Of a stretch of DNA of 64,000 nt, positions 5,078-32,794 are shown piece by piece. Source of the stretch: an uncultured Chlamydiae bacterium (lineage in GTDB: Bacteria; Chlamydiota; Chlamydiia; Chlamydiales; Rhabdochlamydiaceae); assembly GCA_903824495.1 (NCBI GenBank), contig CAIJXB010000061.1:13569-77568 (forward strand), in the 5' to 3' direction. A model generated the notes under the pieces. It did not search any database. It was given only the letters and a program-made list of their open reading frames with translations, and was not told where the DNA came from. Position 1 is the stretch's first letter. The number at the start of each line of letters is the position of its first letter. Both the position numbers and the translations under genes were made by a program.

Positions 5078-5608
5078 TTATGAATTGACTTCTTCTTTGC
5101 TATCAGCTGTTTTATTTTCTAAACAGTACACGACGCTGCAAAGCAGAGCCTCAATAGTTGCAAGAGTTTGACTCATTGGAGCTTCAAATGTTCCTAAGAG
5201 CTGAGCACGCATTTCATCTTGGCTTGGTAGCTGAGAAATGAGTTTCAAGTCTGTTTCGGAACAAAGCTGTCCTTCAAAACGTCCTCCGATCACAACAAAA
5301 TTGTCTGTATTTTCTTTGCAGAATTGATACACGTACTTTGTTGTTTCCACAGGGTCACTATCCGCAAAAATCACACCGATGTGACCTTGAAGATTAGAGC
5401 GATCTAAAGTGAATCCAGCTTTTTCAGCTGCCTTAATGAGCATTCTCTTCTTTACGATTTCAAAGCTGCCGCCTGTCTTCGAGATGTTCATACGAAAATC
5501 TGAAGCAAGATTAGGGCTCATTTTTTGATAAGTCGCTAGAACTATGGCTTGAGAGCCATCGATCTTGTCCTTAATTTCTTGCAATAATAGGGATTTTTCC
5601 TGTCTCAT
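5078..5608 (-). CDS. rplJ: 50S ribosomal protein L10
   Basis: A 176-aa ORF in the conserved position between rplA and rplL. Its length and profile are L10-like. Confidence 0.88.
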   Translation of the reverse strand: MRQEKSLLLQEIKDKIDGSQAIVLATYQKMSPNLASDFRMNISKTGGSFEIVKKRMLIKAAEKAGFTLDRSNLQGHIGVIFADSDPVETTKYVYQFCKENTDNFVVIGGRFEGQLCSETDLKLISQLPSQDEMRAQLLGTFEAPMSQTLATIEALLCSVVYCLENKTADSKEEVNS

Positions 5609-5611
5609 TTG

Positions 5612-6322
5612 TTACACTCCTTGTATCTCAGGGATGGAATGCAAATCAATTTTGAGCCCAGGTCCCATTGTAGAGGACAGCGCTAGAGACTTCAAAAATT
5701 GTCCTTTTGCAGTTGCAGGTCTTGACCTTGCAATCGCTGTTAGCAATATCACAATGTTTTCATGAAGTTTGTCTTTTGTAAAAGAGACTTTTCCAACTGA
5801 ATTATTGATTACGCCATGCTTATCCGTTTTAAACTCAACTTTACCTGCTTTGACTTCGGAAATAGCCTTGGAAATATCCGTTGTAACGGTTCCAGCTTTA
5901 GGGCTAGGCATTAAACCTCTAGGGCCTAATATCTTAGCTAACTTTCCTAATTCACGCATCATATCTGGTGTGGATATGATTGCATTAAAATCTAGCCAAC
6001 CTGATTTTACTTTCTCAAGAAGGTCTTCATTTCCCGCAAAATCAGCTCCAGCATCGAGCGCTTCTTTAATCTTGTCTCCTCGTGCGAACACGACGAGAAC
6101 AATCTTTTTCCCTGTACCATTCGGTAGTGATACAGTTCCACGCACTTGCTGTTCTGTTTTTTGCGCATCTACGCCAGTTTTTAGCGCTAGCTCCAACGAC
6201 TGATCAAACTTAGTCGGAGGACATTTTTTTAAAATTTCGATAGCTTCTTGTACGCTGTAGCTTTTTTCTACATCATACAACTTCGCTATCTCCCGAAATC
6301 TTTTGCTTTTGTGATGCGACAT
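5612..6322 (-). CDS. rplA: 50S ribosomal protein L1
   Basis: A 236-aa ORF with L1 motifs (GTVSLPNGTGK, LGPRGLMPSPKAGTVT). Confidence 0.95.
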   Translation of the reverse strand: MSHHKSKRFREIAKLYDVEKSYSVQEAIEILKKCPPTKFDQSLELALKTGVDAQKTEQQVRGTVSLPNGTGKKIVLVVFARGDKIKEALDAGADFAGNEDLLEKVKSGWLDFNAIISTPDMMRELGKLAKILGPRGLMPSPKAGTVTTDISKAISEVKAGKVEFKTDKHGVINNSVGKVSFTKDKLHENIVILLTAIARSRPATAKGQFLKSLALSSTMGPGLKIDLHSIPEIQGV

Positions 6323-6328
6323 GTTTTT

Positions 6329-6757
6329 TTAACCTTCGATTATATCTACGCCCATAGAACGAGCGGTACCCATAATAAGCTGCATAGCAGCCTCTTCGGA
6401 ATTCACACGCATATCCGATCGTTTTCTATTAACGATGTTTCGGACTTGCGTTTTTGTGAGCTTCCCTACTTTGTCCCTATTTGGCACTTTAGAACCTTTC
6501 TCTATCCCTGCTTCTTTTAAAATAAGACGGGAAGATGGAGGTTGTTTTGTGACAAATGTGAACGTTTTATCTGCATAGACAGAGATAACAACAGGAAGAA
6601 TATCCCCTGCTTTATCTTGAGTCTTTGCATTAAATTCCTTACAAAAAGCCATAATATTCACGCCGGCTCCACCCAAAGCTGGGCCAATAGGAGGGGCGGG
6701 ATTAGCTTTTCCTGCAGGGATTTGCAGTTTAATTGTTTTTACAAGTTTTTTCGCCAT
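6329..6757 (-). CDS. rplK: 50S ribosomal protein L11
   Basis: The sequence [43 protein letters not shown] is canonical L11. The track ORF starts two codons earlier (6763, MIMAKK), so the start is ambiguous. Confidence 0.95.
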
Positions 6758-6785
6758 TATCATTCCTTACTGCAAAAAATTCTTT

Positions 6786-7334
6786 CTATACCATTTCTGA
6801 TTCTGCCGACACTTGCTCGACTTGCCAGAATTCTAAATCATCAACTCTTGTTTCTCGACCAAAGATAGATACCATAACACTGAGTCTTCCCTTATCGTGG
6901 AACACTTCAATAACAGTTCCGATGAAGTTAACAAAAACTCCATCTGTAATCTTCACTTTGTCGCCTGCTGTGATATTGTGCTTTTGGACAATACCCTCTT
7001 TCTTCTCTTCTAATTCTGCTAAAATAGCGTCTACTTCTGATTGTGGAAGAGACGACGGTTTTGCTCCGCCTAAAAAGTCCAATACACCATTCGTGTTCTT
7101 GACATACATCCAAGCATCGTCCGTGAGTGTCATCTGAACAAGAATATATCCAGGCCACATCTTTTTCTCGCTGACCTTCTGTTGTCCCTTCTTCACTTCA
7201 GCCACATTTTCAGTAGGCACCAAAACTTCCGCAACAAGCTCGCTCATCCCTTTGGATTCACGATTTTCTTCCAGTGACTTTTTGACCTTTTTTTCAAGTC
7301 CCGATATGACTTGAACTACATACCATTTATGCAT
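6786..7334 (-). CDS. nusG: Transcription termination/antitermination factor NusG
   Basis: A 182-aa ORF with the NGN-domain start MHKWYVVQVISGLEKKVK and a C-terminal KOW-like GDKVKITDGVFVNFIGTV. It lies in the secE-nusG-rplK order. Confidence 0.95.
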   Translation of the reverse strand: MHKWYVVQVISGLEKKVKKSLEENRESKGMSELVAEVLVPTENVAEVKKGQQKVSEKKMWPGYILVQMTLTDDAWMYVKNTNGVLDFLGGAKPSSLPQSEVDAILAELEEKKEGIVQKHNITAGDKVKITDGVFVNFIGTVIEVFHDKGRLSVMVSIFGRETRVDDLEFWQVEQVSAESEMV

Positions 7335-17948: not shown

Positions 17949-20096
17949 ATGAAAACTTATTTAATATCAGATCTTTATGACCTTATCACTCCAGATGGAT
18001 TCATCTCGGAATACTCTCAGATAGATCAAAGACACGCTACAGCTACAGTCCTTATCCAAAAAATCTCCCCTGCATTTAGAGGTTTTGAAATCGATAAAGA
18101 CTTAGTCTCTTTTAACTTAAAAAGCACTCTAGCGCAACTTGGCCTTGATGCTCTTGGAACAGAATACCTTTTAGAAAGACAAGACAGATCTGCTCGAGTT
18201 AAAATTCATTTAACAGCTTACGGCAAACCTGCTGAGCTTCTTTTAAAACAACTCGATATCGGCTCTTACATCGGAAAACTCTTTGCAGCAGACCCTAAAA
18301 GAAAAGTAAGAGATCCGGATTATCTGCTTCGCATGTTCAATAGATGCGATCGCAAAGGACGCCCTCTGTTGTATCTTGGACAACCCGAAAACAGCGAAGA
18401 TCTTATTTTAGAAAAAAAAGACGGCCACACAGTTGCCTTCCTCTCTTTGTTACAAGGAACAATTGCGTATGATGAAGCCATCCTTGGCTTCATCCCAACT
18501 CTTGGCAAAGCTTTAAAACATCCCCACTTTCAAATGAGACCTCTTTTGCAACTTTTACAAAAGTGGCAACCTCAATCTCCCCGCTCTTTATCCGGTGATG
18601 ACATCCTGCTTGTTAAAACGCAGCCTCTACACGTTCGTACGGTCTTTGGCAAGGTTAGACAGGATCTGCTGCCTGAAGGCTTTAAACACACCTCTGCTTG
18701 CATTTTAGAGCCCTCTACTAAAGCCTCTGGTGATGTGTACGAGCTCTTTGGAACAAGTAGCTCCGAAATCAAGACGATCCCTTTAGAGTTTTTTACTTTA
18801 GAACCTCATAGAGAGCACGTCTTCTTTTCAGATCGAGATCAGTTGCAAACGTGCCTTGAAGATAAAGAGGTGCTGTTTCGCGCCTTTGAAACAGCGCCCC
18901 ATCCCTACCATCACAAGGCTGCTGTATTCATCGCAAAAGGCGAGCAGCTCATCAATTTGGAACCTGGCGATTGGATCTCTAAAGAGCCCCATTTTTATGA
19001 ATTTCCCGGCATGATCTACCACTCTGAAAGACAATCCCTCCTTGTTGAAAAATACATTGAACAGCAGCCGATCTACCCCTTTTTAAAAGCGATAGAGGAT
19101 GAACTGATCACAAGCCAAGGAGTTCTTCTTACTCGATTCTTCCCCTCTCCTATGATGAAGAAGATACTGCTTGATGACTTTGTTCATAGATGCCTTAAAG
19201 GGATCTACTTTGAAAAGCCCTCTAGAACTTTTGGAGATTTTTTCTCTCATGAAGACAGATCTATGCTTCTAGACTTAGCGAAATTTGCCATCCCTGTTTA
19301 CTGGGTAGATAAAAAAACAAGGCAGATCTTGCAATACATAGCCAAACCGAACAAAGACACGGGGATGTTTGTTCCCCTGCATTTGATCGATGACTTTTTA
19401 AATGCGGCTTCTTTTGGAATCTATGGCTCCAACTTGATCTATGGCCATTTTGAACAAGAGCTCACGACACTCTTTGCAGGACTTGAAAAACTCCGACATG
19501 AATTCAATCACCCTATGCTCAATACTAAAACACCGATTGCACTCATCACAGGGGGAGGTCCTGGCGTTATGGAGCTAGGCAATAAGGTAGCTAAATCATT
19601 AAAACTTCTTTCTTGTGCAAACCTCGTAGATTTCAACTCCCAAGGTGGCGCGATTGTCAATGAGCAAAATCAAAATCCTTATGTCGACATCAAAATGACC
19701 TATCGCCTCGATCGCCTTGTTGAAAGACAAGCTGAGTTCAATTTAGATTTTCCAATTTTCTTAGCAGGTGGAATCGGAACTGATTTTGAGTACAGTCTTG
19801 AAGAAGTGAGACGAAAAGTAGGATCTACAGCTTTAACGCCGATCCTTCTTTTTGGCCCCGAAGAATACTGGGCACAAAAGATCACTTCCAAATTTCAGTG
19901 TAATTTAAAGACTGGGACCATTGCTGGATCTGAATGGATCAGCAACTGCTTTTACTGCGTACAAAACGCAGATCAGGCTCTGCGCATCTACAAGCAGTTC
20001 CTTTCTGGAGAGCTCCCCATCGGTAAACAAGGCCCCATTTTCGAGGCCGGCTTTGTTGCCGTCAAAGGAGCTCTTCATAGAACTCTAAGCGTTTAA
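17949..20096 (+). CDS. Large protein with a C-terminal LOG/TIGR00730 (PpnN-like nucleotide 5'-monophosphate nucleosidase) domain
   Basis: The C-terminal roughly 200 aa carry ITGGGPGVMELGN and FLAGGIGTDFEYSLEE (the GGGxGxM and PGGxGTxxE LOG motifs). No domain was recognised in the N-terminal roughly 500 aa. Confidence 0.7.
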   Translation: MKTYLISDLYDLITPDGFISEYSQIDQRHATATVLIQKISPAFRGFEIDKDLVSFNLKSTLAQLGLDALGTEYLLERQDRSARVKIHLTAYGKPAELLLKQLDIGSYIGKLFAADPKRKVRDPDYLLRMFNRCDRKGRPLLYLGQPENSEDLILEKKDGHTVAFLSLLQGTIAYDEAILGFIPTLGKALKHPHFQMRPLLQLLQKWQPQSPRSLSGDDILLVKTQPLHVRTVFGKVRQDLLPEGFKHTSACILEPSTKASGDVYELFGTSSSEIKTIPLEFFTLEPHREHVFFSDRDQLQTCLEDKEVLFRAFETAPHPYHHKAAVFIAKGEQLINLEPGDWISKEPHFYEFPGMIYHSERQSLLVEKYIEQQPIYPFLKAIEDELITSQGVLLTRFFPSPMMKKILLDDFVHRCLKGIYFEKPSRTFGDFFSHEDRSMLLDLAKFAIPVYWVDKKTRQILQYIAKPNKDTGMFVPLHLIDDFLNAASFGIYGSNLIYGHFEQELTTLFAGLEKLRHEFNHPMLNTKTPIALITGGGPGVMELGNKVAKSLKLLSCANLVDFNSQGGAIVNEQNQNPYVDIKMTYRLDRLVERQAEFNLDFPIFLAGGIGTDFEYSLEEVRRKVGSTALTPILLFGPEEYWAQKITSKFQCNLKTGTIAGSEWISNCFYCVQNADQALRIYKQFLSGELPIGKQGPIFEAGFVAVKGALHRTLSV

Positions 20097-21328
20097 AAAC
20101 CCCAGGAAAAACCCACTTCTCCATATTGAGTCTTTTCAAGGAAGAACTGACCTTCATAAGAATGTCCATGGTGATACTCTAAGAAAAGACGCATCTTGCG
20201 TCCAAGACCTGAGAGTTTGCTCAGCTCATATCCCGTTTGGATGAAAAGTTCGAGATCCCAATCTCTAATCTGCCAGTTTTCTAAGTGGATGGCTAGGAAT
20301 GGTGTTCCATAGAGTTGATGGTAGTATAATTTTTGACCTAAAATTTTTAACTCTGTTCCATATTTTGCATATAGATATTGCATCGGAAACGACTGATCGC
20401 TATGCAAAATAACGCCGGGACCAAAATAAACTCTTAAATGACCTGATAGCTGATAAGAGGTCATGATCTCAAGAGCTTCAAAGCTTGGATTACGGCGCTT
20501 ATACAAATAGTCAGGGTGGTTGACGATGAACTCATCTCCCAAATGGCTTGAAATGTGATAGAGCCTTGCTCTGAAAGACCATCTATCGTACGCATACGTT
20601 AAAGGGATCCCTAGAAAATAATCGGTATTGACAAGCTCACAAGTTTCGTTGTTTCTATGAGGCACATCGTGGAAGTTAAATACAGCCCAAATAGCTCCTT
20701 CGATCCCGATCTGCAGGGCTCCATTCCATCTAAAGACATCTCTCCAACGAAACAAGGGGAACTCATCTCCGATAGCAACAGAAGCCGCTTCGATCCCAAC
20801 GACATGGTCCCCATAGCGGTAAGCTGCAAAGTTATAGGGCTCTCTTGGGTCTGCAATAACAGGCTGGAACAAAATAGTCGCCTGAGGAAACCAGATCCCC
20901 TCAACTCTCGGCTGCTCTACATACTTTTCCCTCGATGCAATCTCTGACTGGCTCAGTTCCTTGCGCTCAACAGACTGAACTCCCGGTAGATCTTTCACAA
21001 AATTGATAATACTTGTAGAGGTCAGTTCGTTCTTTGGAAGGTTTGTTAGATAGACCTTGTGATCTTTAACAGTGACGATTACCTGGAACTCGTAGAAGTG
21101 CATATCGACAAGGGCTTGGATGTAACCTTCTAAGTAAGGATCTGTCGAATCCTCAAAGTTCTCTACGGGTAAACTATCTGCCCTCGTGAGTAGCACTGGC
21201 TCTATATAGGCCACTTCTTTTGATTCAAGGCCATCGCAGAGGCCTTCACTGTCGGCCTGCAAAGCCGCAATGCCCAAAATACACGATAAAAAACACGCCA
21301 GTCGCTTTGAGAAAATTGATCTATCCAT
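20093..21328 (-). CDS. Secreted BON-domain protein with a DUF1207-like C-terminal region
   Basis: It has a signal peptide (FLSCILGIAALQA) and a BON-like segment (VIVTVKDHKVYLTNLP...FVKDLPGVQSVE). The aromatic-rich C-terminus ends GFSWGF. My recollection is that the roughly 410-aa DUF1207 family is chlamydia-associated, but this was not verified. Confidence 0.55.
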   Translation of the reverse strand: MDRSIFSKRLACFLSCILGIAALQADSEGLCDGLESKEVAYIEPVLLTRADSLPVENFEDSTDPYLEGYIQALVDMHFYEFQVIVTVKDHKVYLTNLPKNELTSTSIINFVKDLPGVQSVERKELSQSEIASREKYVEQPRVEGIWFPQATILFQPVIADPREPYNFAAYRYGDHVVGIEAASVAIGDEFPLFRWRDVFRWNGALQIGIEGAIWAVFNFHDVPHRNNETCELVNTDYFLGIPLTYAYDRWSFRARLYHISSHLGDEFIVNHPDYLYKRRNPSFEALEIMTSYQLSGHLRVYFGPGVILHSDQSFPMQYLYAKYGTELKILGQKLYYHQLYGTPFLAIHLENWQIRDWDLELFIQTGYELSKLSGLGRKMRLFLEYHHGHSYEGQFFLEKTQYGEVGFSWGF

Positions 21329-21463: not shown

Positions 21464-21537
<74 letters not shown>

Positions 21538-21619
21538 CTTTCTTTAAAATCCATGTACAACTTTCTTTAAATGGTTTGTTAGTGTTATACGTAAGATCCT
21601 TTTTTAGAATGGGTTATTT

Positions 21620-21982
21620 ATGGATCGAAAAGTCATTGCAGTTATCACCGCAATTACAGGTGATCGAGTAGTCATTGGAGATGCGGAGTTAAAACATGCA
21701 ATGGAGGAGCATTTTTCTATGCTTCCAACAGATATGCTGCTAGAACTCATTGAAAGGATCTTAAAAGATCCTACGAAGATCTTCGAACAAGAGAAGCTCC
21801 ATCAATATCATCTTTTTTATCGCCTTGACAATCAAAAATACCTAGTGGTAATTATAAAGAAAACACAAACAGGAAACTATTTCTCATCCATGTACAGCAC
21901 TGGAAAAACTATTCGAAATAGCCACAAAGAATTAAAGGAGATCAGCCATGAAGAAAGGAAAAGTATTTTTCCATCCAATTGA
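21620..21982 (+). CDS. Hypothetical small protein (possible BECR-fold / DUF4258-PBECR-like toxin; low confidence)
   Basis: A 120-aa ORF, first gene of a translationally coupled trio. The pattern KHAMEEH...ILKDPTKIF...HLFYRL...YLVVIIKK...SSMYSTG recalls small RelE/barnase-like nuclease families. This was not verified. Confidence 0.35.
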   Translation: MDRKVIAVITAITGDRVVIGDAELKHAMEEHFSMLPTDMLLELIERILKDPTKIFEQEKLHQYHLFYRLDNQKYLVVIIKKTQTGNYFSSMYSTGKTIRNSHKELKEISHEERKSIFPSN

Positions 21983-22220
21983 CGGTTCAGGCTCTTTGAC
22001 TATTTCCTGGAGCTCTACCCCCAAGGGAGATGCTATTGACGCAAAAAAAGGATCTGGTGTTGGCTTCTTTTCTGAATCTAAAGATTTACTTGCGGTCATT
22101 TTTGATGAAGTAAAAGAATCTGAAGACCAGCAAACCTTAGAATTTGATCAAGTCCTCATTGAAGTGACTGTAAAAAATGGGGAGGCTACGTACGCACTAA
22201 CCTCCAAAAAAACCTTATGA
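21948..22220 (+). CDS. Hypothetical small protein (possible DUF2283-like antitoxin partner; low confidence)
   Basis: A 90-aa ORF with a strong AAGGAG SD 7 nt before the ATG. It overlaps the upstream ORF by 35 nt, and its TGA overlaps the ATG of the GNAT gene (ATGA). Confidence 0.35.
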   Translation: MKKGKVFFHPIDGSGSLTISWSSTPKGDAIDAKKGSGVGFFSESKDLLAVIFDEVKESEDQQTLEFDQVLIEVTVKNGEATYALTSKKTL

Positions 22221-22663
22221 ATTCTGTAGAAATTAGGATGGCAACCTCCACTGAACAGATTCAATCGTGTTACATAGCTATACGCCAACTTCGCCCTCAT
22301 ATAACAGAAAAATTAGCATTCGTCGAACAAGTACAGCGTCAATTAAAAGAAGGATATCATCTAGCATATATTGAAGCAGATGGTGAAGTGAAAGCTCTTG
22401 TTGGATTTAGATTTTTGGAATTCTTAGCATGGGGAAAGGTATGCTACATTGATGATTTAATCACCGACTCGGAAACGAGGAGAAATGGCCATGGTGGAAA
22501 ACTCTTAAAATGGGTAATTGAGCAGGCAAAAAAAGAAAACTGCGACCAAGTTCATCTGGATAGTGGCCCACAACGTCTTGATGCACACAGGCTATACTTG
22601 AATCACGGATTTAAAATTATTGGGCATCACTTCGCTCTAAATTTTAAAGAGACACCCTTTTGA
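22217..22663 (+). CDS. GNAT-family N-acetyltransferase
   Basis: A 148-aa ORF with acetyl-CoA motif A (RRNGHGGKLLKWVIEQAKK) and the DSGPQRLDAHRLYLNHGFKI tail. Confidence 0.85.
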   Translation: MNSVEIRMATSTEQIQSCYIAIRQLRPHITEKLAFVEQVQRQLKEGYHLAYIEADGEVKALVGFRFLEFLAWGKVCYIDDLITDSETRRNGHGGKLLKWVIEQAKKENCDQVHLDSGPQRLDAHRLYLNHGFKIIGHHFALNFKETPF

Positions 22664-22851
22664 CCATGCCCGCCATCTTGACCGTCTACATTCCCAGATC
22701 CATCAGCACCATGCTCTCCATCTTTAGCGCGCATAGATTCGCAAGTGTTCGACTCTTGCGAATTGCACTCTTTTGTATCACAAGCTGTCATCGAAACCGA
22801 GGCCACAAGAAGTAATCCAAATAACATTGTTGAAACGATCCTGCTTTTCAT
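22627..22851 (-). CDS. Small Gly/Asp/His-rich lipoprotein-like peptide (74 aa), third of three tandem peptide genes
   Basis: MKSRIVSTMLFGLLLVASVSMTA|CDTKECNSQESNTCESMRAKDGEHGADGSGNVDGQDGGHGQKGVSLKFRAK. AAGGA lies before the ATG at 22851. It shares the DGQDG motif with the upstream peptide. The track's longer ORF (to 22947) is the same frame run back through the upstream peptide gene. Confidence 0.6.
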   Translation of the reverse strand: MKSRIVSTMLFGLLLVASVSMTACDTKECNSQESNTCESMRAKDGEHGADGSGNVDGQDGGHGQKGVSLKFRAK

Positions 22852-22861
22852 TTTTAATCCT

Positions 22862-23020
22862 TTATTTTTTTTTGCCATCTTGTCCATCACTTCCTTTCCC
22901 CAAAGGGCCTGTACCACCGCTGCCACCATTACCGCCATTTCCAGCATAGGCTTTAATCGATGTGGTTGATGTCACTAAGAGTGAAAGAACAAAGAGGACT
23001 TTGAATAGAGGAAGTCTCAC
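22862..23020 (-). CDS. Small secreted Gly-rich peptide (52 aa), not in the ORF track
   Basis: The GTG at 23020 overlaps the TGA stop of the upstream peptide (GTGA), and GGAG lies 7 nt upstream. It translates as (M)RLPLFKVLFVLSLLVTSTTSIKAYA|GNGGNGGSGGTGPLGKGSDGQDGKKK*, ending in a TAA at 22862-22864. Confidence 0.5.
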   Translation of the reverse strand: MRLPLFKVLFVLSLLVTSTTSIKAYAGNGGNGGSGGTGPLGKGSDGQDGKKK

Positions 23021-23184
23021 TTACTATCTCCGCCATGACCGCCATGACCACCAGGTCCTCCATGCCCAGCAGCACCACCAGAGTGACTACCTTGACCACC
23101 AGGGCCTCCGTTTGCAGCATGTAGAGTTGGATCTATTACGAACATAGAAACTGCGATTGCTACTGAAATTTTTTTGAAAATCAT
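23017..23184 (-). CDS. Small secreted Gly/His-rich peptide (55 aa)
   Basis: MIFKKISVAIAVSMFVIDPTLHA|ANGGPGGQGSHSGGAAGHGGPGGHGGHGGDSK. AAGGAG lies 7 nt before the ATG at 23184. The track's longer ORF starts at 23304. Confidence 0.6.
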   Translation of the reverse strand: MIFKKISVAIAVSMFVIDPTLHAANGGPGGQGSHSGGAAGHGGPGGHGGHGGDSK

Positions 23185-23421
23185 ACTGAACTCCTTAAAT
23201 GTTTCTTTTGGGAGATCTTTATGCAATCCTATTTTATAGACTGTCAAGGACAATGGATAAAATGCTCCCACTCTCCAGCTGCATTTGCAACACAATCGCA
23301 ACACAGTTCGGCCCTATTTTGGTTAGCAAAGCTCAGCCATCACCAGTTGAAAGAAAGGAATCAGATGAGGCACTCTACTAGTGTAAGCAGCAAATGAGTG
23401 CTGACGGCGATGGAAAAGGAA

Positions 23422-23475
23422 GCTGACTCATAAGCCGCTCTTTGTAGGTTCAAGTCCTACTTGCCCCACTTTCTT
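23422..23475 (+). repeat. Pseudo-tRNA 3' fragment / att-like direct repeat of the tRNA-CAU 3' end
   Basis: Positions 23444-23475 are identical to 21513-21544 (gtaggttcaagtcctacttgccccactttctt, 32 bp). Similarity extends upstream with a few mismatches into the anticodon arm (gctgactcataagccgc vs gcggactcataatccgt). There is no 5' half, so this is not a functional tRNA. Confidence 0.85.
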
Positions 23476-23511: not shown

Positions 23512-24747
23512 TTATGTGATGTTTCGGTTCCATAAAGGAATGGTTTGAAGATGTTTCGAAATTGCGTTACGTGCTTCCTTATTTAAAGGAAGGTCTCCAA
23601 CTGTTTTCCAGCTTTCAGAAAAGGCTTGCACAGTTTCTTTCACAGTATCCAGGACTAGATTTTCAGGTAATAGAGTTTTGGCAGCAAAACGTTTGAACTG
23701 GTCCAATGTAAGAGATCCAAAGTCTTTATTATCTACAAATTTTAAAGAGAGTGAATCTTCGGGCAAATAAAGAATTGTTGAAACAAAATCATATGCAGGC
23801 GCAAGCGATGGTTTATTCCTCTCTCTATAAATAAGAGACCAATTTTTTAGATGCATATCGCCATTTCCAATGAGTGCATTAAAAACAAATCGCTTGATAA
23901 ATTCTACAACACCAGGTTCTCCAACTTCGCGCCAAATGACGTCTGCTATATTTCGATAACTTGCCTGTTTATACTTCTTTTCAGGATAAACACCAAAAAC
24001 CTGTGCGAAATCTTCTATATGGATTTTATCGTCACTTTCAGTTCTGTCAAAGCGTTTGATAACAAATACATTATCCACCAGCTGCTCAAAGTCTTTAGGA
24101 AGTCCTTGCACTTGATTAACAGGAATCAAACTAGTTTGAGGAACATCAATGCCTATTCTTCTAGCTAATTCCATCATTGTGTATTCATTTTCGGGAACAT
24201 CTTTGAATCTAGTGTGTGGGAGTTTTATAATCCATCCTCCTCCAATTCCATTTACAGGGATGGTCAATCCATGATCGTCTTCTACGGCTGAGAATTTCAA
24301 TTGGACTCCAGCTAATGAAAAACGCAGAAGGACTTCTTTCTTTTTTTCGCTTTTTAATTTTGAGAGGTCTTCTTGAAAAAGCTTTCCATTATCAATGGAT
24401 TCAATTGTAAGCGCTCCAGGTAAATCTTGCCCAAGAGCTTCTAAAAGAGAAAATTCATGTTTGGGATTAAGATTTGCGCGTTTTGCTAAATAGTCGCGCA
24501 AGGGTCCCTCTGGCAAAAGATTCGCAAAAAATGGGGAAAGGCGTGTCTGCGTAATCTCTGAATCTGTGATGAGTTCCCCTAGAACATTTTTAAAAGATAG
24601 ACTAAGAGTAGGGCGAGAGGGGTTCTGAATGTAGTCGGAATCGAATACAAACAGGTTTTTATCACCGGGCAAATGAGTTATTGTACCGATTTGATCGTTA
24701 TACAAAAGAACTTTGAGCGTTTTGGTATCAGTCGTCATCGCTGTCAT
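23512..24747 (-). CDS. hipA: HipA-family Ser/Thr kinase toxin (type II TA)
   Basis: A 411-aa ORF with the N-terminal coupling motif FSLAGVQLKFS and the catalytic GNGDMHLKNWSLIY (GNxDxHxKN). It overlaps the upstream HTH gene by 20 nt. Confidence 0.9.
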   Translation of the reverse strand: MTAMTTDTKTLKVLLYNDQIGTITHLPGDKNLFVFDSDYIQNPSRPTLSLSFKNVLGELITDSEITQTRLSPFFANLLPEGPLRDYLAKRANLNPKHEFSLLEALGQDLPGALTIESIDNGKLFQEDLSKLKSEKKKEVLLRFSLAGVQLKFSAVEDDHGLTIPVNGIGGGWIIKLPHTRFKDVPENEYTMMELARRIGIDVPQTSLIPVNQVQGLPKDFEQLVDNVFVIKRFDRTESDDKIHIEDFAQVFGVYPEKKYKQASYRNIADVIWREVGEPGVVEFIKRFVFNALIGNGDMHLKNWSLIYRERNKPSLAPAYDFVSTILYLPEDSLSLKFVDNKDFGSLTLDQFKRFAAKTLLPENLVLDTVKETVQAFSESWKTVGDLPLNKEARNAISKHLQTIPLWNRNIT

Positions 24748-25039
24748 CCTTATTTGGTAGTTGGTAGGCTGGAGTTGACTTTTGCACTAATGATGTATTT
24801 TGAATGGCATTGATGGCAGGTAAGAGGTTGCGTGGTACCAATATGAGCTCTAAGTCAAGAGCTCTTGCAATCTCGATAAGACTGGAGGTCTGGAGATCAA
24901 CCATTCCATTTTCAATTTTAGAAATATGGCTTTGAGGGACGCCAATTTTAGTGCTAAGAGCTCTTTGACTAAGTCCCTTTTTTTTGCGGCCAATCTTGAT
25001 GTTTTTTGCTAGTTCTTCAACGGAATAAGCCATTTTCAC
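24728..25039 (-). CDS. hipB: XRE-family HTH antitoxin (HipB-like)
   Basis: KKKGLSQRALSTKIGVPQSHISKIENG is a Cro/C1-type HTH. The start is either the GTG at 25039 or the ATG at 25033. Confidence 0.85.
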   Translation of the reverse strand: MKMAYSVEELAKNIKIGRKKKGLSQRALSTKIGVPQSHISKIENGMVDLQTSSLIEIARALDLELILVPRNLLPAINAIQNTSLVQKSTPAYQLPNKDDSDDD

Positions 25040-25055: not shown

Positions 25056-25114
25056 TTTTATATATTAAAACATATCGAATATACGGGTCAAGCGATATGT
25101 TTTAATATATAAAA
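25056..25114. promoter_or_regulatory. Candidate hipBA operator/promoter: perfect 22-bp inverted repeat
   Basis: ttttatatattaaaacatatcg (25056-25077) and cgatatgttttaatatataaaa (25093-25114) are exact reverse complements with a 15-bp spacer. In the gene direction the spacer contains cTTGACc (-35-like), and the promoter-proximal arm contains TAATAT 17-18 nt later. A third, degenerate half-site, tgatatgttattatatata, lies at 25124-25142. Confidence 0.6.
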
Positions 25115-26379: not shown

Positions 26380-28848
26380 ATGCTTTTTGCCTTTGCACGA
26401 AAATTTCATTTAAGTTTGAGCCTAGCAGCTTGCTTGATCGCCCCCTTATCTGCTTTTGCAGAGAATGTAGCCATCATTGGAGGGATAGATCTGACTGGAT
26501 CTGGACCTGCCTATGCAGCTCTTGTCTCGGCTTCTGGAACATTGACACCACTTGCACTGCCAGGCGATGCAGCAACGGGAGGCATTATCAATAGCGTATC
26601 CATGAACGCTTCAGAAAACAGTCTTATCGGAGGGCAAGGTCAAAGTGCAGCTGCTTACGCAGCACTGGTTTCTTCTTTGGAAGAGGTGACTCCTCTTACA
26701 TTTAGCGGAGGACTAGAGATCCATGGAGTCATCAATGGAGCTGCAATCAACGCCTCTGGAAATGGCATCATCGGAGGAAGGGATACCACAGGACCTGTCT
26801 ATGCAGCGCTCGTTCCCTCTTCAGGCAATCCAATCGTGCCTTTGACATTTCCAAGTCCCGTGTCATCCGGTGGAATCATCAATACCGTTTCAATCAACGC
26901 CTCTGGAAATAGTCTCGTTGGAGGACAGGTTCTTTCTGGATCGCTGCCTGCCTACGCAGCGTCAGTTTCTTCTTCTGGCGAGGTCACTTCCCTTACGTTG
27001 ACAGGAGGTATAACTACAACGGGAAATATCCTATCCGTTTCAATCAATGATTCAGGAAACGGCATCATCGGAGGGCGGGATCTCACCGGAGCGGAACCTG
27101 GTTATGTAGCTCTTGTCTCTTCTTCTGGAGATGTAACGTCTCTTACATTAACAGGAGGCGTGGCTACAACTGGCGAAATCCGTTCTGTAGCAATCAATGC
27201 TTCTGGAAGCAGTATCATTGGAGGGCAAGATTCGACTGGAGGTCAACCAGGTTATGCAGCTTTTGTCTCCCCTTCAGGAACGATAACACCTCTTACATTG
27301 ACAGGCGGTGTGAGCACCAATGGGACCATCAATAGCGTTGCGATCAACGCCTCTGGGAATGGCATTATTGGAGGACAAGATCTGACCGGAGGTCAGCCTG
27401 CTTTTGCAGCTCTTGTTTCTGCTTCAGGAACTGTGACACCTCTTGTACTCGGAACGGATATGGATACAAGCGGAATTATCTATAGCGTTGCCATCAGCTC
27501 TGAAGGAAACGGAATCCTTGGAGGATGGAATTTAACAGGCTCCCAACCTGGCTTTGCGGCTCTTTTTTCTTCTTCAGGAACGGTGATCCCTCTTACTCTC
27601 ACAGGGGGAATAACTACCAATGGGTGGATCAATGGTGTAGCTTGGATGGAAAGCACTCTGCCCCTTCTCACCAAAATCCCTACAGCTTCTTTATCCGGAA
27701 ACAATTTAACTTTTGCAAGTTACATTAACGAATTTGCTCCTGACGATGCGTTTTATTTCATTCCCTCAGAGCTTGATGGGACGCTGAATTCAGCTCTGCA
27801 AAGCGCAGCTCCAACTCGTAATGGAGTGTCGACCTATACTGCAAACAACAACTTATTTTTTCTGACAACAAGCTTTGCAAATCACATCAGAAACCAGCAA
27901 TCAGAAAGTTTTTTGCAGCCCAAAGAATCTATAGCAGTCTCTGGACATCCACTGCCCTATAAAGAGCTCACGGCATCGCTCTCCGAATCTAAAAAAGTAG
28001 AGGCTAACACATCTAGCTTAATCTGGTTTGAAATGGTCGGAGCCTTGGCCTATCAAAAATCACAAGAGCAAACCGTAGGCTTTAATCCAACAACAGGTGG
28101 CGCAATCTTAGGCTTCGACCATAAGATTATACCACATTTAAGGATTGGTGGAGGGGTATCATATCTGTTTACTCATATTCATGAAAAAGAAGGACAGGGA
28201 CATAGCAACATCAATCAAGAAGATGCATTTATCTATGGGTCCTGGGACCATCGACACTTTTATGTCGATATGCTTGTAATGGGCGGAGCTTTTCAAACTG
28301 CTCAAGTAAGAAAAATTAAAATGACTGGCTTTTCCTTCAGCTCTACATCTCACCCAAATGGATGGCAATTACTCCCTCATGTGGAACTTGGCTTTAAAAG
28401 GAACATATCAAGTGGGTTTTATCTCACTCCTTTTGGTATGGTTGACCTCGCAAACGCCTGGCAAGGAAGTTATAAGGAAAAAGGAAACGGCCCCTTCAAT
28501 GTTTCTCAAAAATCTTATTATGGATCCCTTCTTCGTACAGAAGCAGGTCTGCGCTTCTACGAAACTCTCTTTTTCAAATCTTGGAACTTTAGCCTCGAAG
28601 AAAAAGTCAGTTACGTGAATACGCAATCTTTTGGTGGAGGCAAAGTTAATGCATTCCTTGTGGGTTCACCTGGATCATTTACGGTAGAAACGCTCTCATC
28701 AGCACAAAATTTAGGCGTAGCTCAAGTTGCGATGACTTTTGCACCCCTTAATGGCAAATACCCCATAAGCACCCTCTTTTATCAGGGAGAATTCGGCTCG
28801 CAATACCAATCCCATCAATTAAACCTAGAGCTTGGTTGGAAGTTTTAA
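26380..28848 (+). CDS. Autotransporter outer-membrane protein with a repetitive passenger domain
   Basis: It has a signal peptide (LSLAACLIAPLSAFAEN), about eight repeats of roughly 50 aa, and a C-terminal roughly 280-aa beta-barrel-like region with alternating aromatic/hydrophobic residues. It ends LNLELGWKF with a terminal aromatic. Confidence 0.8.
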   Translation: MLFAFARKFHLSLSLAACLIAPLSAFAENVAIIGGIDLTGSGPAYAALVSASGTLTPLALPGDAATGGIINSVSMNASENSLIGGQGQSAAAYAALVSSLEEVTPLTFSGGLEIHGVINGAAINASGNGIIGGRDTTGPVYAALVPSSGNPIVPLTFPSPVSSGGIINTVSINASGNSLVGGQVLSGSLPAYAASVSSSGEVTSLTLTGGITTTGNILSVSINDSGNGIIGGRDLTGAEPGYVALVSSSGDVTSLTLTGGVATTGEIRSVAINASGSSIIGGQDSTGGQPGYAAFVSPSGTITPLTLTGGVSTNGTINSVAINASGNGIIGGQDLTGGQPAFAALVSASGTVTPLVLGTDMDTSGIIYSVAISSEGNGILGGWNLTGSQPGFAALFSSSGTVIPLTLTGGITTNGWINGVAWMESTLPLLTKIPTASLSGNNLTFASYINEFAPDDAFYFIPSELDGTLNSALQSAAPTRNGVSTYTANNNLFFLTTSFANHIRNQQSESFLQPKESIAVSGHPLPYKELTASLSESKKVEANTSSLIWFEMVGALAYQKSQEQTVGFNPTTGGAILGFDHKIIPHLRIGGGVSYLFTHIHEKEGQGHSNINQEDAFIYGSWDHRHFYVDMLVMGGAFQTAQVRKIKMTGFSFSSTSHPNGWQLLPHVELGFKRNISSGFYLTPFGMVDLANAWQGSYKEKGNGPFNVSQKSYYGSLLRTEAGLRFYETLFFKSWNFSLEEKVSYVNTQSFGGGKVNAFLVGSPGSFTVETLSSAQNLGVAQVAMTFAPLNGKYPISTLFYQGEFGSQYQSHQLNLELGWKF
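26485..27645 (+). repeat. In-frame tandem coding repeats (about 8 units of 144-150 bp)
   Basis: The unit consensus is xDLTGxQPGYAALVSSSGxVTPLTLTGGxxTxGxINSVAINASGNGIIGG. Each unit ends in GG, at residues 85, 133, 182, 232, 282, 332 and 382, and the first unit is preceded by the GG at residue 35. Confidence 0.85.
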
Positions 28849-30529: not shown

Positions 30530-32794
30530 ATGAGGTGTATCGTGATTTCAGGTAACCGCAAGTTCCTAAGGGCAATCCTCTTTACCGCTGTAGCTCTTAG
30601 CTGCTCTAAAATGGATGCAGGATCTCCAAGTACTTGGACTGGAGATGATTCATCTCAAATGCGGGTTGGATTCAACTGGGATAATGGGACGCCTAATGGT
30701 GGCCTTGCAATCTTCAATGGAGATGGCGATAATGCTCCGATTGCCAACCAAACTGGCCCTTTGACCTTTGATGAGATGGAATTTATAGCAGATACAGAGG
30801 TCTCTATCATAACGCTTCTTGAAACAAATGGTTCTGCCGGAATTGTAGCCAATCCCGGGATCTCTGCTAACTTTGCCATCTACGAACACCAATACCCCTT
30901 TTTCGATCCCGCAGCTCTTAGAGTCTCGGGTGGTCCAGCGGGCGATGGAGGAGGCTCTGTTACCTATAGCTTAGAAGGATATGGCCAACTCTACGCTCAT
31001 TCAGGGTCGACCGGAGAGACATCTATCGATGTTATCATGACACTTGGAAACAACTACTTTGAGATCGATAGCGCCGGCGAAAACCTCTTCGACAACGTAA
31101 GCTCAGACGATTTAACTGATGAAATCGCACTATTTTCAGGAGCGAACCTCACAATCAGAGGCTCAAATGCCAATATCATCAATGGTAGCATTACAGGAAC
31201 AGGTTCTTTAACAAAAACAGGAACCGGTATTCTTACGCTGAATAACGATAACACCTATAATGGCAATACCCTTGTGAGCGAGGGAACTTTGATTTTAAAT
31301 GGGAGTGTAGCAGCAGACCTTACTTTAGATCTCGGTGCTATATTGAAGGGAAATGGAATAATCGGCGGCAGCTTGATCAGCAGTGGCACTGTAGCCCCCG
31401 GAAACTCAATTGGAACGCTTTTTGTTACAAACTTCCTTCCGACAGATTCAAATGTCTATGAAGCTGAAGTCTCAGGCTCTGGCCTTTCTGACCAGATCGT
31501 GGCAACGGGTGCTGCGAATATAGCAGGAACGCTTGATGTTATTCCTTTAGATCTATCTTTTACTGCTCCTCAAACCTACAACATCATCCATGCAGGAGAC
31601 TTAACAGGCACCTTTTCAGCCTTGACTAGTAGCTCCCCCGCTTTAATGAAGCTCGATTATGGAGCCAACGACGTACTTTTAACCTATCTTCCTTTGTCTG
31701 CTATTGGTCTTGGTCACAATGCACTCGCTGGAGCTGACTGTTTTGTAACTCTTGCAGGGAGCGATCCCGAAAGGATTACTGCGGAATTGTTATCTCTTCC
31801 ATTTTCAGAGATAGAAAATGCCTTTAATCACATGCAGCCCTCTCAGTTTTCAGCGCAGAGCTGGAACCAAATATCCAACGCTCTACTCATCCGCTCTGGC
31901 TATTCAAAGCATCTTGGCGAATTTTCTGTTGATGATGAGTGCTGCGGGCCCCGTTCATCAAGTGTGTGGATCGATACGACCGGCCAGTGGCAACATCAAG
32001 GCTCCAAAGGAAATCAATTTGGCTACCGTGATGCAACAGGTGGCGTTTCTTTAGGCGCAGATACTTGCTATAACCATTTCAAACTAGGAGCTGCTGCTAG
32101 CTACACCTATTCTCATCTACACTGGAAAGAGTCTGCCGGAACCGGCCAAATCAACAGTTATTACACGGGACTTTATGGGGGATGGAGCGATACGCGACGC
32201 TATGTCGATATTGCAGTCCTTGGAGCCTATAATCGGTATAGAACAACGCGTCACATCGAATTCGGGAATATCGATCGAAGGGCTTCTGCCAATCACAATG
32301 GATGGGAGGGGCTTGCCGGTATCGGAGCTGGGGTCTTTTCTGTGATGAAGCATTTTAAAGTGGGCCCTTTTGCAAGAGTTGATTATGTCTACTTATCGCA
32401 GCAAGGGTATCAAGAATCCGGGGCAAAGAGTTTAGACCTCAAAGTAAACTCTCGCCAAGACCAACTGATCCAAAGCCAGGCCGGAGTGGTCTTAACTGGG
32501 CGCTACTTATGTGGAAGTGAACAAAATCAAGCATCGTTTGTGCCACGTCTTGAGCTTAGCTATATAAACCAAACACCCCTTGGAAGATCCCACTATTACG
32601 CTCACTTCGGTGATAGCAGCTGCGAGTTTAATGTATCCGGCTGGAACTTTAATCGTAATTTAGGGGCTGTTGGTGCCTCACTTGGATACTTAACTAGTGG
32701 TGAACGCTTTGGAATCACAGCTGAATATGATGGACAATTTGGGACTAGATATTGGAACCAAAGTGGAACTATCGTTTTCAACATAAACTACTAG
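30530..32794 (+). CDS. Autotransporter outer-membrane protein (PATR-type passenger repeat)
   Basis: GTGSLTKTGTGILTLNNDNTYNGNTLVSEGTLILNGSV is the autotransporter-associated beta-strand repeat. The C-terminal roughly 280-aa barrel ends TIVFNINY. Confidence 0.85.
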   Translation: MRCIVISGNRKFLRAILFTAVALSCSKMDAGSPSTWTGDDSSQMRVGFNWDNGTPNGGLAIFNGDGDNAPIANQTGPLTFDEMEFIADTEVSIITLLETNGSAGIVANPGISANFAIYEHQYPFFDPAALRVSGGPAGDGGGSVTYSLEGYGQLYAHSGSTGETSIDVIMTLGNNYFEIDSAGENLFDNVSSDDLTDEIALFSGANLTIRGSNANIINGSITGTGSLTKTGTGILTLNNDNTYNGNTLVSEGTLILNGSVAADLTLDLGAILKGNGIIGGSLISSGTVAPGNSIGTLFVTNFLPTDSNVYEAEVSGSGLSDQIVATGAANIAGTLDVIPLDLSFTAPQTYNIIHAGDLTGTFSALTSSSPALMKLDYGANDVLLTYLPLSAIGLGHNALAGADCFVTLAGSDPERITAELLSLPFSEIENAFNHMQPSQFSAQSWNQISNALLIRSGYSKHLGEFSVDDECCGPRSSSVWIDTTGQWQHQGSKGNQFGYRDATGGVSLGADTCYNHFKLGAAASYTYSHLHWKESAGTGQINSYYTGLYGGWSDTRRYVDIAVLGAYNRYRTTRHIEFGNIDRRASANHNGWEGLAGIGAGVFSVMKHFKVGPFARVDYVYLSQQGYQESGAKSLDLKVNSRQDQLIQSQAGVVLTGRYLCGSEQNQASFVPRLELSYINQTPLGRSHYYAHFGDSSCEFNVSGWNFNRNLGAVGASLGYLTSGERFGITAEYDGQFGTRYWNQSGTIVFNINY

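Follow-up and report, generated by a model that had tools for sequence, protein, structure and literature searches.

The question raised by the stretch of DNA analyzed here, a 64,000-nucleotide window on contig CAIJXB010000061.1 of an uncultured bacterium of the Rhabdochlamydiaceae, is what is encoded on its minus strand between positions 22627 and 23184. A preliminary description had read three tandem short genes for exported Gly-rich peptides there, in place of longer open reading frames (ORFs). We conclude that these genes, termed P1, P2 and P3, belong to a new and unnamed bacterial family of standalone mini-proteins, which carry signals for export by the general secretory (Sec) pathway and are encoded together in a mobile cassette. 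On the reading that we favor, to which we give somewhat better than even chances, the full-length members of this mobile, Sec-exported three-gene cassette fold as bundles of polyproline-II (PPII) helices and assemble with one another, and the copy in the window is an eroded one.

Two diverged loci served for comparison: L008, on contig CAMDPQ010000066.1 of a metagenome-assembled genome (MAG), which holds the whole unit, and L006, a contig of 620 bp. Reading the minus strand of the window gives exactly the three tandem ORFs that had been claimed, with these features (aa, amino acids; nt, nucleotides; a slash marks the end of a signal peptide):

23017..23184, minus strand: P1, a 55-aa precursor, from an ATG at 23184 to a TGA stop at 23019-23017; signal MIFKKISVAIAVSMFVIDPTLHA, then a mature part of 32 aa, ANGGPGG...GGDSK

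23191..23196, minus strand: Shine-Dalgarno (SD) sequence of P1, AAGGAG, 6 nt 5' of the ATG and identical in L008

22862..23020, minus strand: P2, a 52-aa precursor, from a GTG at 23020-23018 to a stop at 22864-22862; signal ...SIKAYA, then a mature part of 26 aa, GNGGNGGSGGTGPLGKGSDGQDGKKK

22627..22851, minus strand: P3, a 74-aa precursor, from an ATG at 22851 to a stop at 22629-22627, with AAAGGA upstream; lipoprotein-like signal MKSRIVSTMLFGLLLVASVSMTA/C, then a mature part of 51 aa with a C-x7-C loop and an acidic core, RAKDGEHGADGSGNVDGQDGGHGQKG

23218..23247, minus strand: candidate promoter, read by eye, with TTGACA at 23247-23242, an 18-nt spacer and CATAAA at 23223-23218

22655..23248, minus strand: extent of the conserved cassette (promoter, P1, P2 and codons 1-66 of P3), the block that can be aligned to L008 and L006

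The GTG start of P2 shares the bases GTGA with the P1 stop, and the same overlap is kept in L008. The junction sequence AAGTGAGG is also kept in a further locus, L009, where a homopolymer frameshift comes after it, and P2 of the window retains the P2-type tail G.G..GQDGKKK. The second hexamer of the candidate promoter corresponds to TATAAA in L008; the promoter is not listed by a strict scan, which demands T at position 6 of that hexamer. Across all six frames of the window, only three stretches hold at least 9 Gly in 24 aa, and these are P1, P2 and P3, a confinement that excludes an effect of background composition. Public gene calls give P1 as read here (the exact 55-aa product) and P3 only as a 106-aa longest ORF, and P2 is not present in a public collection of 15 billion proteins. 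Longest-ORF calling thus masks the architecture, as had been suggested, with two of the three window genes mis-called or missed by standard gene finders, and the earlier three-gene model is better than the public calls.

Evidence that the short frames are the coding ones comes from the diverged loci. Five other metagenome contigs (L001-L005) match the window base for base over their overlap and another (L007) differs by 1 substitution, so that these carry no evolutionary signal. P3 is 91% identical to the window in L008 and 81% identical, as protein, in L006. Differences between the window and L008 at codon positions 1, 2 and 3 number 3, 2 and 10 in P1, 3, 2 and 11 in P2, and 3, 2 and 11 in P3, so that third positions hold 32 of the 47. 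Ratios of nonsynonymous to synonymous substitution (dN/dS, Nei-Gojobori) are 0.15 for P1 and 0.13 for P2 between the window and L008, and 0.12 for P3 and 0.07 for P2 between L008 and L006. In ungapped blocks, the corresponding ratio of proportions (pN/pS) is 0.15-0.23 in the P frames, which hold no stops, and 0.8-1.8 in the remaining two sense frames, which do; one antisense frame has a ratio similar to that of the P frame, but it has wobble positions in common with it and contains stops. The signal-peptide portions by themselves follow the same trend. In the 106-aa ORF, the 5' extension runs over P2 in another frame and is therefore a spurious reading; that of a 95-aa ORF crosses the SD sequence and the promoter, where both differences from L008 are nonsynonymous. 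Judged from the third-position bias, the pN/pS ratios and the conservation of the starts in L008, P1, P2 and P3 are real genes, and the synonymous and nonsynonymous changes favor the short frames over the longer ORFs as those under selection, in agreement with the earlier proposal.

The order P1-P2-P3 is identical in six loci, which comprise Rhabdochlamydiaceae-like MAGs, Fluviispira and two metagenome contigs; they are the window and the following five:

L008 (CAMDPQ010000066.1, MAG): P1 of 76 aa, P2 of 107 aa and P3 of 96 aa, with transposase genes 3' of the cassette

L009 (GCA_044227055.1): cassette with frameshifts at homopolymer runs

L011 (Fluviispira multicolorata; Bdellovibrionota, Silvanigrellales): cassette beside a Tn3 transposase and a resolvase

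L014 (metagenome contig of 64% GC): cassette with frameshifts

L015 (metagenome contig of 39% GC): P2 start overlapping the P1 end, and P2 split by a Tn5-type insertion sequence (IS)

No gene beyond P1-P2-P3 is common to the cassette loci, which usually adjoin IS or transposon (Tn) elements or tRNA fragments; the accessory character attributed to the genes is borne out by these neighbors. The homology between the window and L008 opens 1 base 5' of TTGACA and stops within P3, and in L008 a terminator-like hairpin lies about 50 nt 3' of P3. The family spans at least two named phyla, Chlamydiota and Bdellovibrionota. In L015 (5306-6890), the Tn5-type transposase occupies 5324-6787 inside P2, the P2 tail 6794-6883, and P3 follows at 6895-7134. 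Upstream of the cassette in L008 (290-400) lies a reverse tRNA-like fragment with CTCATAA, a CAT anticodon loop, for which ARAGORN makes no call; here again the cassette adjoins a remnant resembling tRNA-Met. Frameshifts at T7 or G7 runs occur in P2- and P3-type genes at L009:6060-6080 and 6505-6515, in L014, and at L016:4780-4990, and could reflect either assembly errors of long reads or true pseudogenisation.

We searched for further members with several kinds of query. A search with P2 of L008 yielded 10 small relatives; the best of these, used in an exhaustive HMMER search of 1.84 billion representatives, gave only 19 matches; and a P3-type profile retrieved 75 clusters of proteins of 80-120 aa. 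One P3-type member is found in 'Chlamydiales bacterium STE3', with a frameshifted P2-type gene directly upstream. About 15 public P3-type calls start with a 'MDKMAKKNKGLK'-like extension, which is a +1-frame reading of the P2 tail GDGQDGKKK*, and this places P2 before P3 in those further cases as well. The extension is a systematic annotation artefact for this family, in which many public P3-type genes carry a spurious wrong-frame N-terminus; such calls include P0007, P0014, P0057, P0059-P0063, P0066, P0068 and P0069. Pfam, NCBIfam, PHROGs and PADLOC hold no family for the members, and only sub-threshold lipoprotein-signal matches and matches to Gly-rich PHROGs were obtained. Two scans of metagenome contigs, with P2-type and P3-type alignments, gave no confirmed relative among the 600 matches listed for each, the patterns being too generic in Gly. 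A scan of viral contigs yielded only a giant phage tail-fibre protein (L013) whose DGQDG repeats are collagen-like; it was set aside as unrelated. No description of the family turned up in literature searches on Rhabdochlamydia glycine-rich proteins, on GGNGG and on PPII proteins secreted by bacteria.

All three protein types are built on one 14-residue unit, GGx-GGx-GGx followed by S-x-x-G-x, in which the Gly pairs and the Ser are invariant. Proteins of the P1 type are close to neutral and have GGNGGNGG[DN]SK at the end. The basic P2 types, with a charge of +2 to +6, terminate in G.GG.GG.GP.G.G..G.DGKK[KRI]. P3 types are acidic: among 53 of them, the net charge of the last 58 residues averages -5.4 and spans -12 to 0. 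Their N-terminal part varies and in many cases includes a C-x7-C loop; RAKDGE.G and eight invariant Gly-x-x triplets come next, and the ending GG.GGNGGNS.[WY]G.GG.GGNGGD[AV][DE] forms the very C-terminus in 49 of the 75 clusters. The window cassette has the order, the P1 end, the P2 end and the P3 core (RAKDGEHG), and the P3 C-terminal motif is replaced by VSLKFRAK. By hhalign, the C-terminal module of P3 aligns to the P2 repeat with a probability of 95.6%, which argues, at the level of sequence, that P1, P2 and P3 are old paralogues with one common repeat. The relatedness that had been proposed from a DGQDG motif in P2 and P3 is in this sense real, but DGQDG is a minor feature and the 14-residue repeat is the signature. 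Nor are the genes recently diverging local paralogues, as had been supposed; they represent three old, distinct types whose order is constant across phyla.

Signals for export are a further common trait. The N-termini in the window carry a charge of +2, then a hydrophobic stretch of at least 10 residues (Kyte-Doolittle mean 2.7-2.9) and a small-x-small site (LHA/A in P1, AYA/G in P2 and the lipobox-like SMTA/C in P3), so that the Sec-type signals first noticed by eye are present on all three. Across the members examined, the N-terminal charge is +1 to +2, with P2 of Fluviispira as the sole exception; a hydrophobic core and a site of AxA type are present in every one. The P3 signal in the window (...VSMTA/C, with Cys at residue 24) fits the PROSITE-style lipobox [LVI][ASTVI][GAS]-C, and NCBIfam lipoprotein-signal matches are weak and sub-threshold. 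The lipobox Cys is restricted to a Rhabdochlamydiaceae-like subgroup; L009 reads ITA/FD, Fluviispira reads FSYS/KE, and a subgroup marked by EAYGRR is without it. The lipobox described for P3 thus holds for the window but not as a feature of the family, and from this motif P3 is probably lipid-anchored in this lineage.

Compared with its relatives, the window copy is an eroded derivative of a full-length cassette. Relative to the L008 orthologue, P1 is 21 aa shorter as the result of two in-frame deletions (33 and 30 nt), and P2 lacks 55 of 81 mature residues, all of them repeats. The P2 loss has left a scar:

22912..22924, minus strand: 13-nt sequence GGCAGCGGTGGTA, a single copy

In L008 this 13-mer is present twice, exactly 165 nt apart, so that the single copy marks the in-frame deletion of 165 nt in the window; the long form of P2 appears to be ancestral, since the forms in L006, in the relative P0015 and in Fluviispira are longer. 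About two 14-residue units are left in the shortened P1 and P2. The damage to P3 involves its surroundings, a 1.9-kb islet (21464-23475) without an integrase, whose limits are as follows:

21464..21538, plus strand: tRNA-Met (CAT), left edge of the islet carrying the cassette

23421..23475, plus strand: direct repeat of the 3' part of tRNA-Met, 55 nt, 89% identical, right edge of the islet

22217..22663, plus strand: GNAT acetyltransferase gene in the islet, convergent with P3, with an overlap of 37 nt

The tRNA-flanked islet of the preliminary description is therefore confirmed, with tRNA-Met and its 55-nt repeat bracketing 1.9 kb; an Rfam scan of the islet found the tRNA and its fragment and nothing else. 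The homology of P3 to its relatives is limited to 22655-22851. P3 closes with 8 codons (VSLKFRAK) that are the GNAT end, ...ALNFKETPF, in reverse complement, and the final two GNAT codons and stop fall within cassette-derived sequence. P3 lacks the conserved C-terminal module GGxGGNGGNSxxGxGGxGGNGGD[AV][DE], and no hairpin of the L008 terminator type follows it in the window. A rearrangement with the neighboring GNAT gene has cost P3 its C-terminal repeat module. The GNAT gene itself was not found at any other of the six cassette loci and is a neighbor, not a partner: it is present in the window only, where its 3' end overwrote that of P3.

These losses raise the strongest alternative, that the cassette in this genome is a decaying remnant with open ORFs whose products are nonfunctional leftovers. 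The extent of the P2 and P1 deletions, the replacement of the most conserved P3 module by antisense GNAT sequence, the missing terminator and the degenerate, integrase-less islet are all in keeping with it. Against it, the ORFs, start codons, SD sequences, signal peptides and promoter are all intact, with no frameshifts or stops, and the variant recurs without change in L001-L005 and with 1 substitution in L007, from at least two sample series. We hold this alternative to be a real if minority possibility, and it is compatible with the explanation that we prefer for the family as a whole. The copy in the window may be only partly functional; from the intact signals and the recurrence in several metagenomes, it may still be expressed, with atypical products.

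What the full-length proteins look like was approached by modeling. The 81-aa mature part of P0015, a full-length P2-type relative, was submitted to AlphaFold2 with a 17-sequence alignment of the family; the best model reached a predicted local distance difference test (pLDDT) of 92.0 and a predicted template-modeling (pTM) score of 0.75. By DSSP this model has no helix or strand, only isolated bridges at residues 12, 26, 40 and 54, a period of 14 residues. Foldseek against PDB placed four chains at the top, 7JJV A (E 2.4e-7), 7JJV B (3.2e-5), 3BOG (7.7e-4) and 2PNE (1.4e-3, TM 0.55), of which three reach E <=0.001; all four are PPII-bundle antifreeze proteins (AFPs) of springtails. Against viral models, the sole match below 1e-3 was a Gly-rich mycobacteriophage minor tail protein (E 5.8e-4). 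The springtail unit consists of 3-4 GX1X2 repeats, X1 often being Gly, and loops of 3-6 residues, in a fold called unique to Collembola (PMC10235112); the family repeat of three GGx triplets and a 5-residue turn matches this unit. Two-layer PPII sheets in which the non-Gly residue points outward are known from (X-Gly-Gly)n peptides, as reported for (Pro-Gly-Gly)n and (Ala-Gly-Gly)n (bioRxiv 10.1101/2023.11.25.568672). On every predicted helix of the family, it is Asn, His, Asp, Lys, Arg and Ser that face outward. The best-supported model for full-length members is a small two-layer bundle of antiparallel polyproline-II (polyglycine-II-like) helices with both faces hydrophilic. The fold class predicted in this way is a known one, that of the Gly-rich PPII bundles of springtail AFPs, PE_PGRS proteins and phage adhesins. 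The snow-flea AFP sequence is matched at E 1e-20 by a 780-residue chain in PDB entries 8ZXL and 9IUS, labeled 'spindlefibril | axialfibril', which suggests another large Gly-rich assembly of PPII type; no paper on it was found.

Several points weigh against this reading. The five P0015 models, all from a single AlphaFold2 run, have pLDDT values of 92, 79, 63, 44 and 43, so that only one is confident. A single-sequence prediction for another member, P0016, gave a pLDDT of about 40 over the Gly region and a spurious helix over a mis-called N-terminus. AlphaFold2 was trained on structures of the snow-flea AFP (sfAFP) and may reproduce them for any GGx-rich input, and since Foldseek scores 3Di and amino acid together, composition contributes to its matches. 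With phmmer, run on a mature P2 type, and with the family profile, no match at E <=10 was found among all PDB sequences (probably an effect of composition correction), whereas a control search with the sfAFP sequence did retrieve 2PNE, 3BOG and 7JJV. At 32, 26 and 51 aa, none of the mature peptides of the window is long enough to make a six-helix bundle by itself. The damaged copies (the frameshifts in L009, L014 and L016 and the IS in L015) could mean that the cassette is often dispensable, or could be long-read errors. The indels among relatives, all multiples of three (33, 30, 165 and 9 nt), carry little weight as a sign of selection, as codon-phased repeat slippage gives them anyway. Hetero-assembly, location and role are matters that we infer.

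Some of the same evidence would suit a different view, in which the peptides, once exported, stay intrinsically disordered as hydrophilic chains rich in Gly and Asn, with no defined fold; in the envelope or inclusion these could provide a hydration layer, a spacer or a matrix component. Besides the poor single-sequence prediction and the low confidence of three of the five alignment-based models, it is favored by the extreme hydrophilicity of the proteins (only 7-15% of non-Gly positions are hydrophobic) and by the free variation of repeat number among relatives. It leaves unexplained the strict 14-residue period with its invariant Gly pairs and Ser, the run of eight invariant triplets with Gly at each third position in P3 types, and the exact C-terminus ...GGNGGD[AV][DE] in 49 of 75 clusters together with the low dN/dS. 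These regularities argue for a structural constraint on the family, and we judge disorder unlikely, with a chance that is still worth reckoning with.

Our preferred reading of the cassette, as a mobile unit encoding an exported PPII-type assembly, can be set out as follows. The three genes would be co-transcribed from their own promoter and translationally coupled, with a terminator in full-length copies, and the cassette would be self-contained and spread horizontally. Each product would be exported by the Sec pathway. The constant order of the triplet, the P1-P2 translational coupling, the opposite charges of P2 (basic) and P3 (acidic) and the common repeat lead us to propose that the three exported chains combine in fixed proportions into one heteromeric complex, placed in the periplasm or on the surface of a membrane and anchored in this lineage by the putative lipid of P3. 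This small and strongly hydrophilic complex of PPII type would belong to the envelope or, if secreted further, to the inclusion lumen. It would act as a structural or surface-binding module rather than as an enzyme, toxin or metal chaperone.

The structural neighbors raise the possibility that the proteins bind ice, in antifreeze or ice adhesion, in the manner of springtail PPII-bundle AFPs (sfAFP, 2PNE/3BOG; GrAFP, 7JJV), which are the sole significant neighbors of the family model in PDB. As in these, a signal peptide precedes a mature protein that is small and rich in Gly (PMC10235112), with GGx/GXX triplets in runs of three split by turns of 3-6 residues, and the agreement extends to size and composition: mature P2 of L008 and of P0015 each have 81 aa and 49% Gly, and sfAFP has 81 aa and 46% Gly. 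Flat, regular Asn arrays could in principle order water, and the isolate name of one relative's MAG, ZH-03apr19-43, suggests an environmental sample of April 2019. The ice-binding face itself, however, is absent. Its hydrophobic Ala, Val and Thr, which alternate outward with hydrophilic residues in the springtail proteins, have no counterpart in the family, the hydrophobic share of non-Gly positions being 7-15% in P2 types and 57% in sfAFP. There is no detectable sequence homology, and the hosts are obligate intracellular bacteria. The springtail proteins are from arthropods, in contrast to a bacterial family with three co-encoded chain types and opposite charges, and sfAFP typically has inter-helix disulfides where the family has only a C-x7-C loop in some P3 types. 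With neither homology nor an ice-binding face, membership of the cassette proteins in the AFP family is not supported, and ice binding is distinctly improbable. Rhabdochlamydiaceae infect arthropods, which makes shared ancestry or exchange with arthropod proteins conceivable. The boldest form of the model would make the cassette the first standalone snow-flea-AFP-like PPII bundle outside Collembola, a three-chain, charge-complementary secreted assembly on mobile DNA that might bind ice or another regular surface and be linked to arthropod proteins by ancestry or exchange; we regard this as a long shot.

Other known systems resemble the family in part. PE_PGRS repeats and phage tail domains have both been discussed as PPII bundles (PMC13243192). 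The PGRS domains are bacterial and exported, and their long GGA/GGN repeats are proposed to form PPII sandwich bundles (PMC13243192), but PE_PGRS proteins use ESX-5 secretion and a PE domain, while the cassette proteins have Sec signals and no Pfam match. They also run to hundreds of residues, in contrast to tens with a regular 14-residue unit in Chlamydiota and Bdellovibrionota. Phage tail adhesins (gp38 of Salmonella phage S16, 6F45, and mycobacteriophage minor tail proteins) share the Gly-rich PPII bundle that is predicted here, but their bundles are receptor-binding domains of large virion proteins, whereas the cassette proteins are standalone and secreted, of about 50-80 aa; no phage context was found at any cassette locus.

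Two functions offered in the preliminary description fare poorly. As periplasmic Gly/His-rich binders of Ni, Zn or Cu, the peptides could point to GHGGPGGHGGHGG in P1 of the window, where His makes up 25% of the non-Gly residues. In relatives, however, the His positions are occupied by N, D, K, R or S; His falls to 2-5% in P2 and P3 of L008 and to 0% in P2 of Fluviispira, and no genes of metal transport or homeostasis are linked at any locus. With His unconserved and no metal genes nearby, we consider metal binding very improbable. A competitive role as Gly-rich bacteriocins or microcin-like toxins is scarcely credible. Small, Gly-rich, exported ribosomal peptides on mobile islets, here beside toxin-antitoxin-like genes, do recall class II microcins and Gly-rich bacteriocins, but those have double-glycine leaders of 15-18 aa, and the family has Sec signals with AxA sites, no C39 ABC exporter, modification or immunity gene within 4-6 kb in the six loci, no hydrophobic or amphipathic segment for attack on membranes, and producers that are largely obligate intracellular bacteria. 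A collagen-like heterotrimer, suggested by the eight Gly-x-x triplets with charged X/Y positions in the P3 core (DGQNGQDGQKG...), as in Scl1/Scl2, and by the three chains, as in heterotrimeric collagens, was rejected: the 14-residue period breaks the Gly-X-Y phase at each repeat, the runs are far too short, and there is no Pro and no trimerisation domain.

Bundles of Gly-rich PPII helices represent a rare third type of protein architecture, of which the small standalone version has been reported from springtails only, and the predicted fold makes the cassette moderately to highly interesting. A secreted family of 50-80 residues with a regular 14-residue repeat would be easy to express and would offer a new system for the stabilisation of PPII folds, and its three co-encoded, oppositely charged chains could show whether such folds assemble from separate chains. 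For chlamydia-like symbionts, and on the location proposed above, the cassette would add to the envelope or inclusion an exported component that is encoded on mobile DNA. The window copy itself is of lower value in these respects because it is eroded.

The remainder of the islet and its flanks contain further features. The window is chromosomal, with rpoB, tuf and other core genes. Its RpoB groups at 90% identity with a protein cluster labeled 'MAG: Rhabdochlamydiaceae bacterium' (Chlamydiota, order Parachlamydiales), in keeping with the earlier guess of a chlamydial origin. Two short ORFs of the islet precede the GNAT gene:

21620-21982: PBECR2-like nuclease ORF (Pfam E 2.3e-6, just above the cut-off)

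21948-22220: 90-aa ORF that overlaps the end of the nuclease ORF, with no family

Together these look like a toxin-immunity pair. In L001 (1300-1418, compared with 22200-22320 of the window), the sequence matches the window exactly over the cassette and the greater part of the GNAT gene. The 5' end of the GNAT gene there differs and abuts another tRNA-like 3' end, GGGGCAAGCTGGACTTGAACCAG, and the nuclease and 90-aa ORFs seem to be missing, so that the islet appears to be polymorphic in the population. A DUF1207 gene of outer-membrane type (20093-21328) comes before the tRNA. Directly outside the islet lie hipA (23512-24747) and a hipB-like helix-turn-helix gene (24728-25039), and just 5' of the latter is a perfect 22-nt inverted repeat (25056-25077 and 25093-25114) that could be an operator. 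Two genes of autotransporter type (26380-28848 and 30530-32794), which match the Pfam Autotransporter beta-domain and the NCBIfam autotransporter barrel, are also found near the islet.

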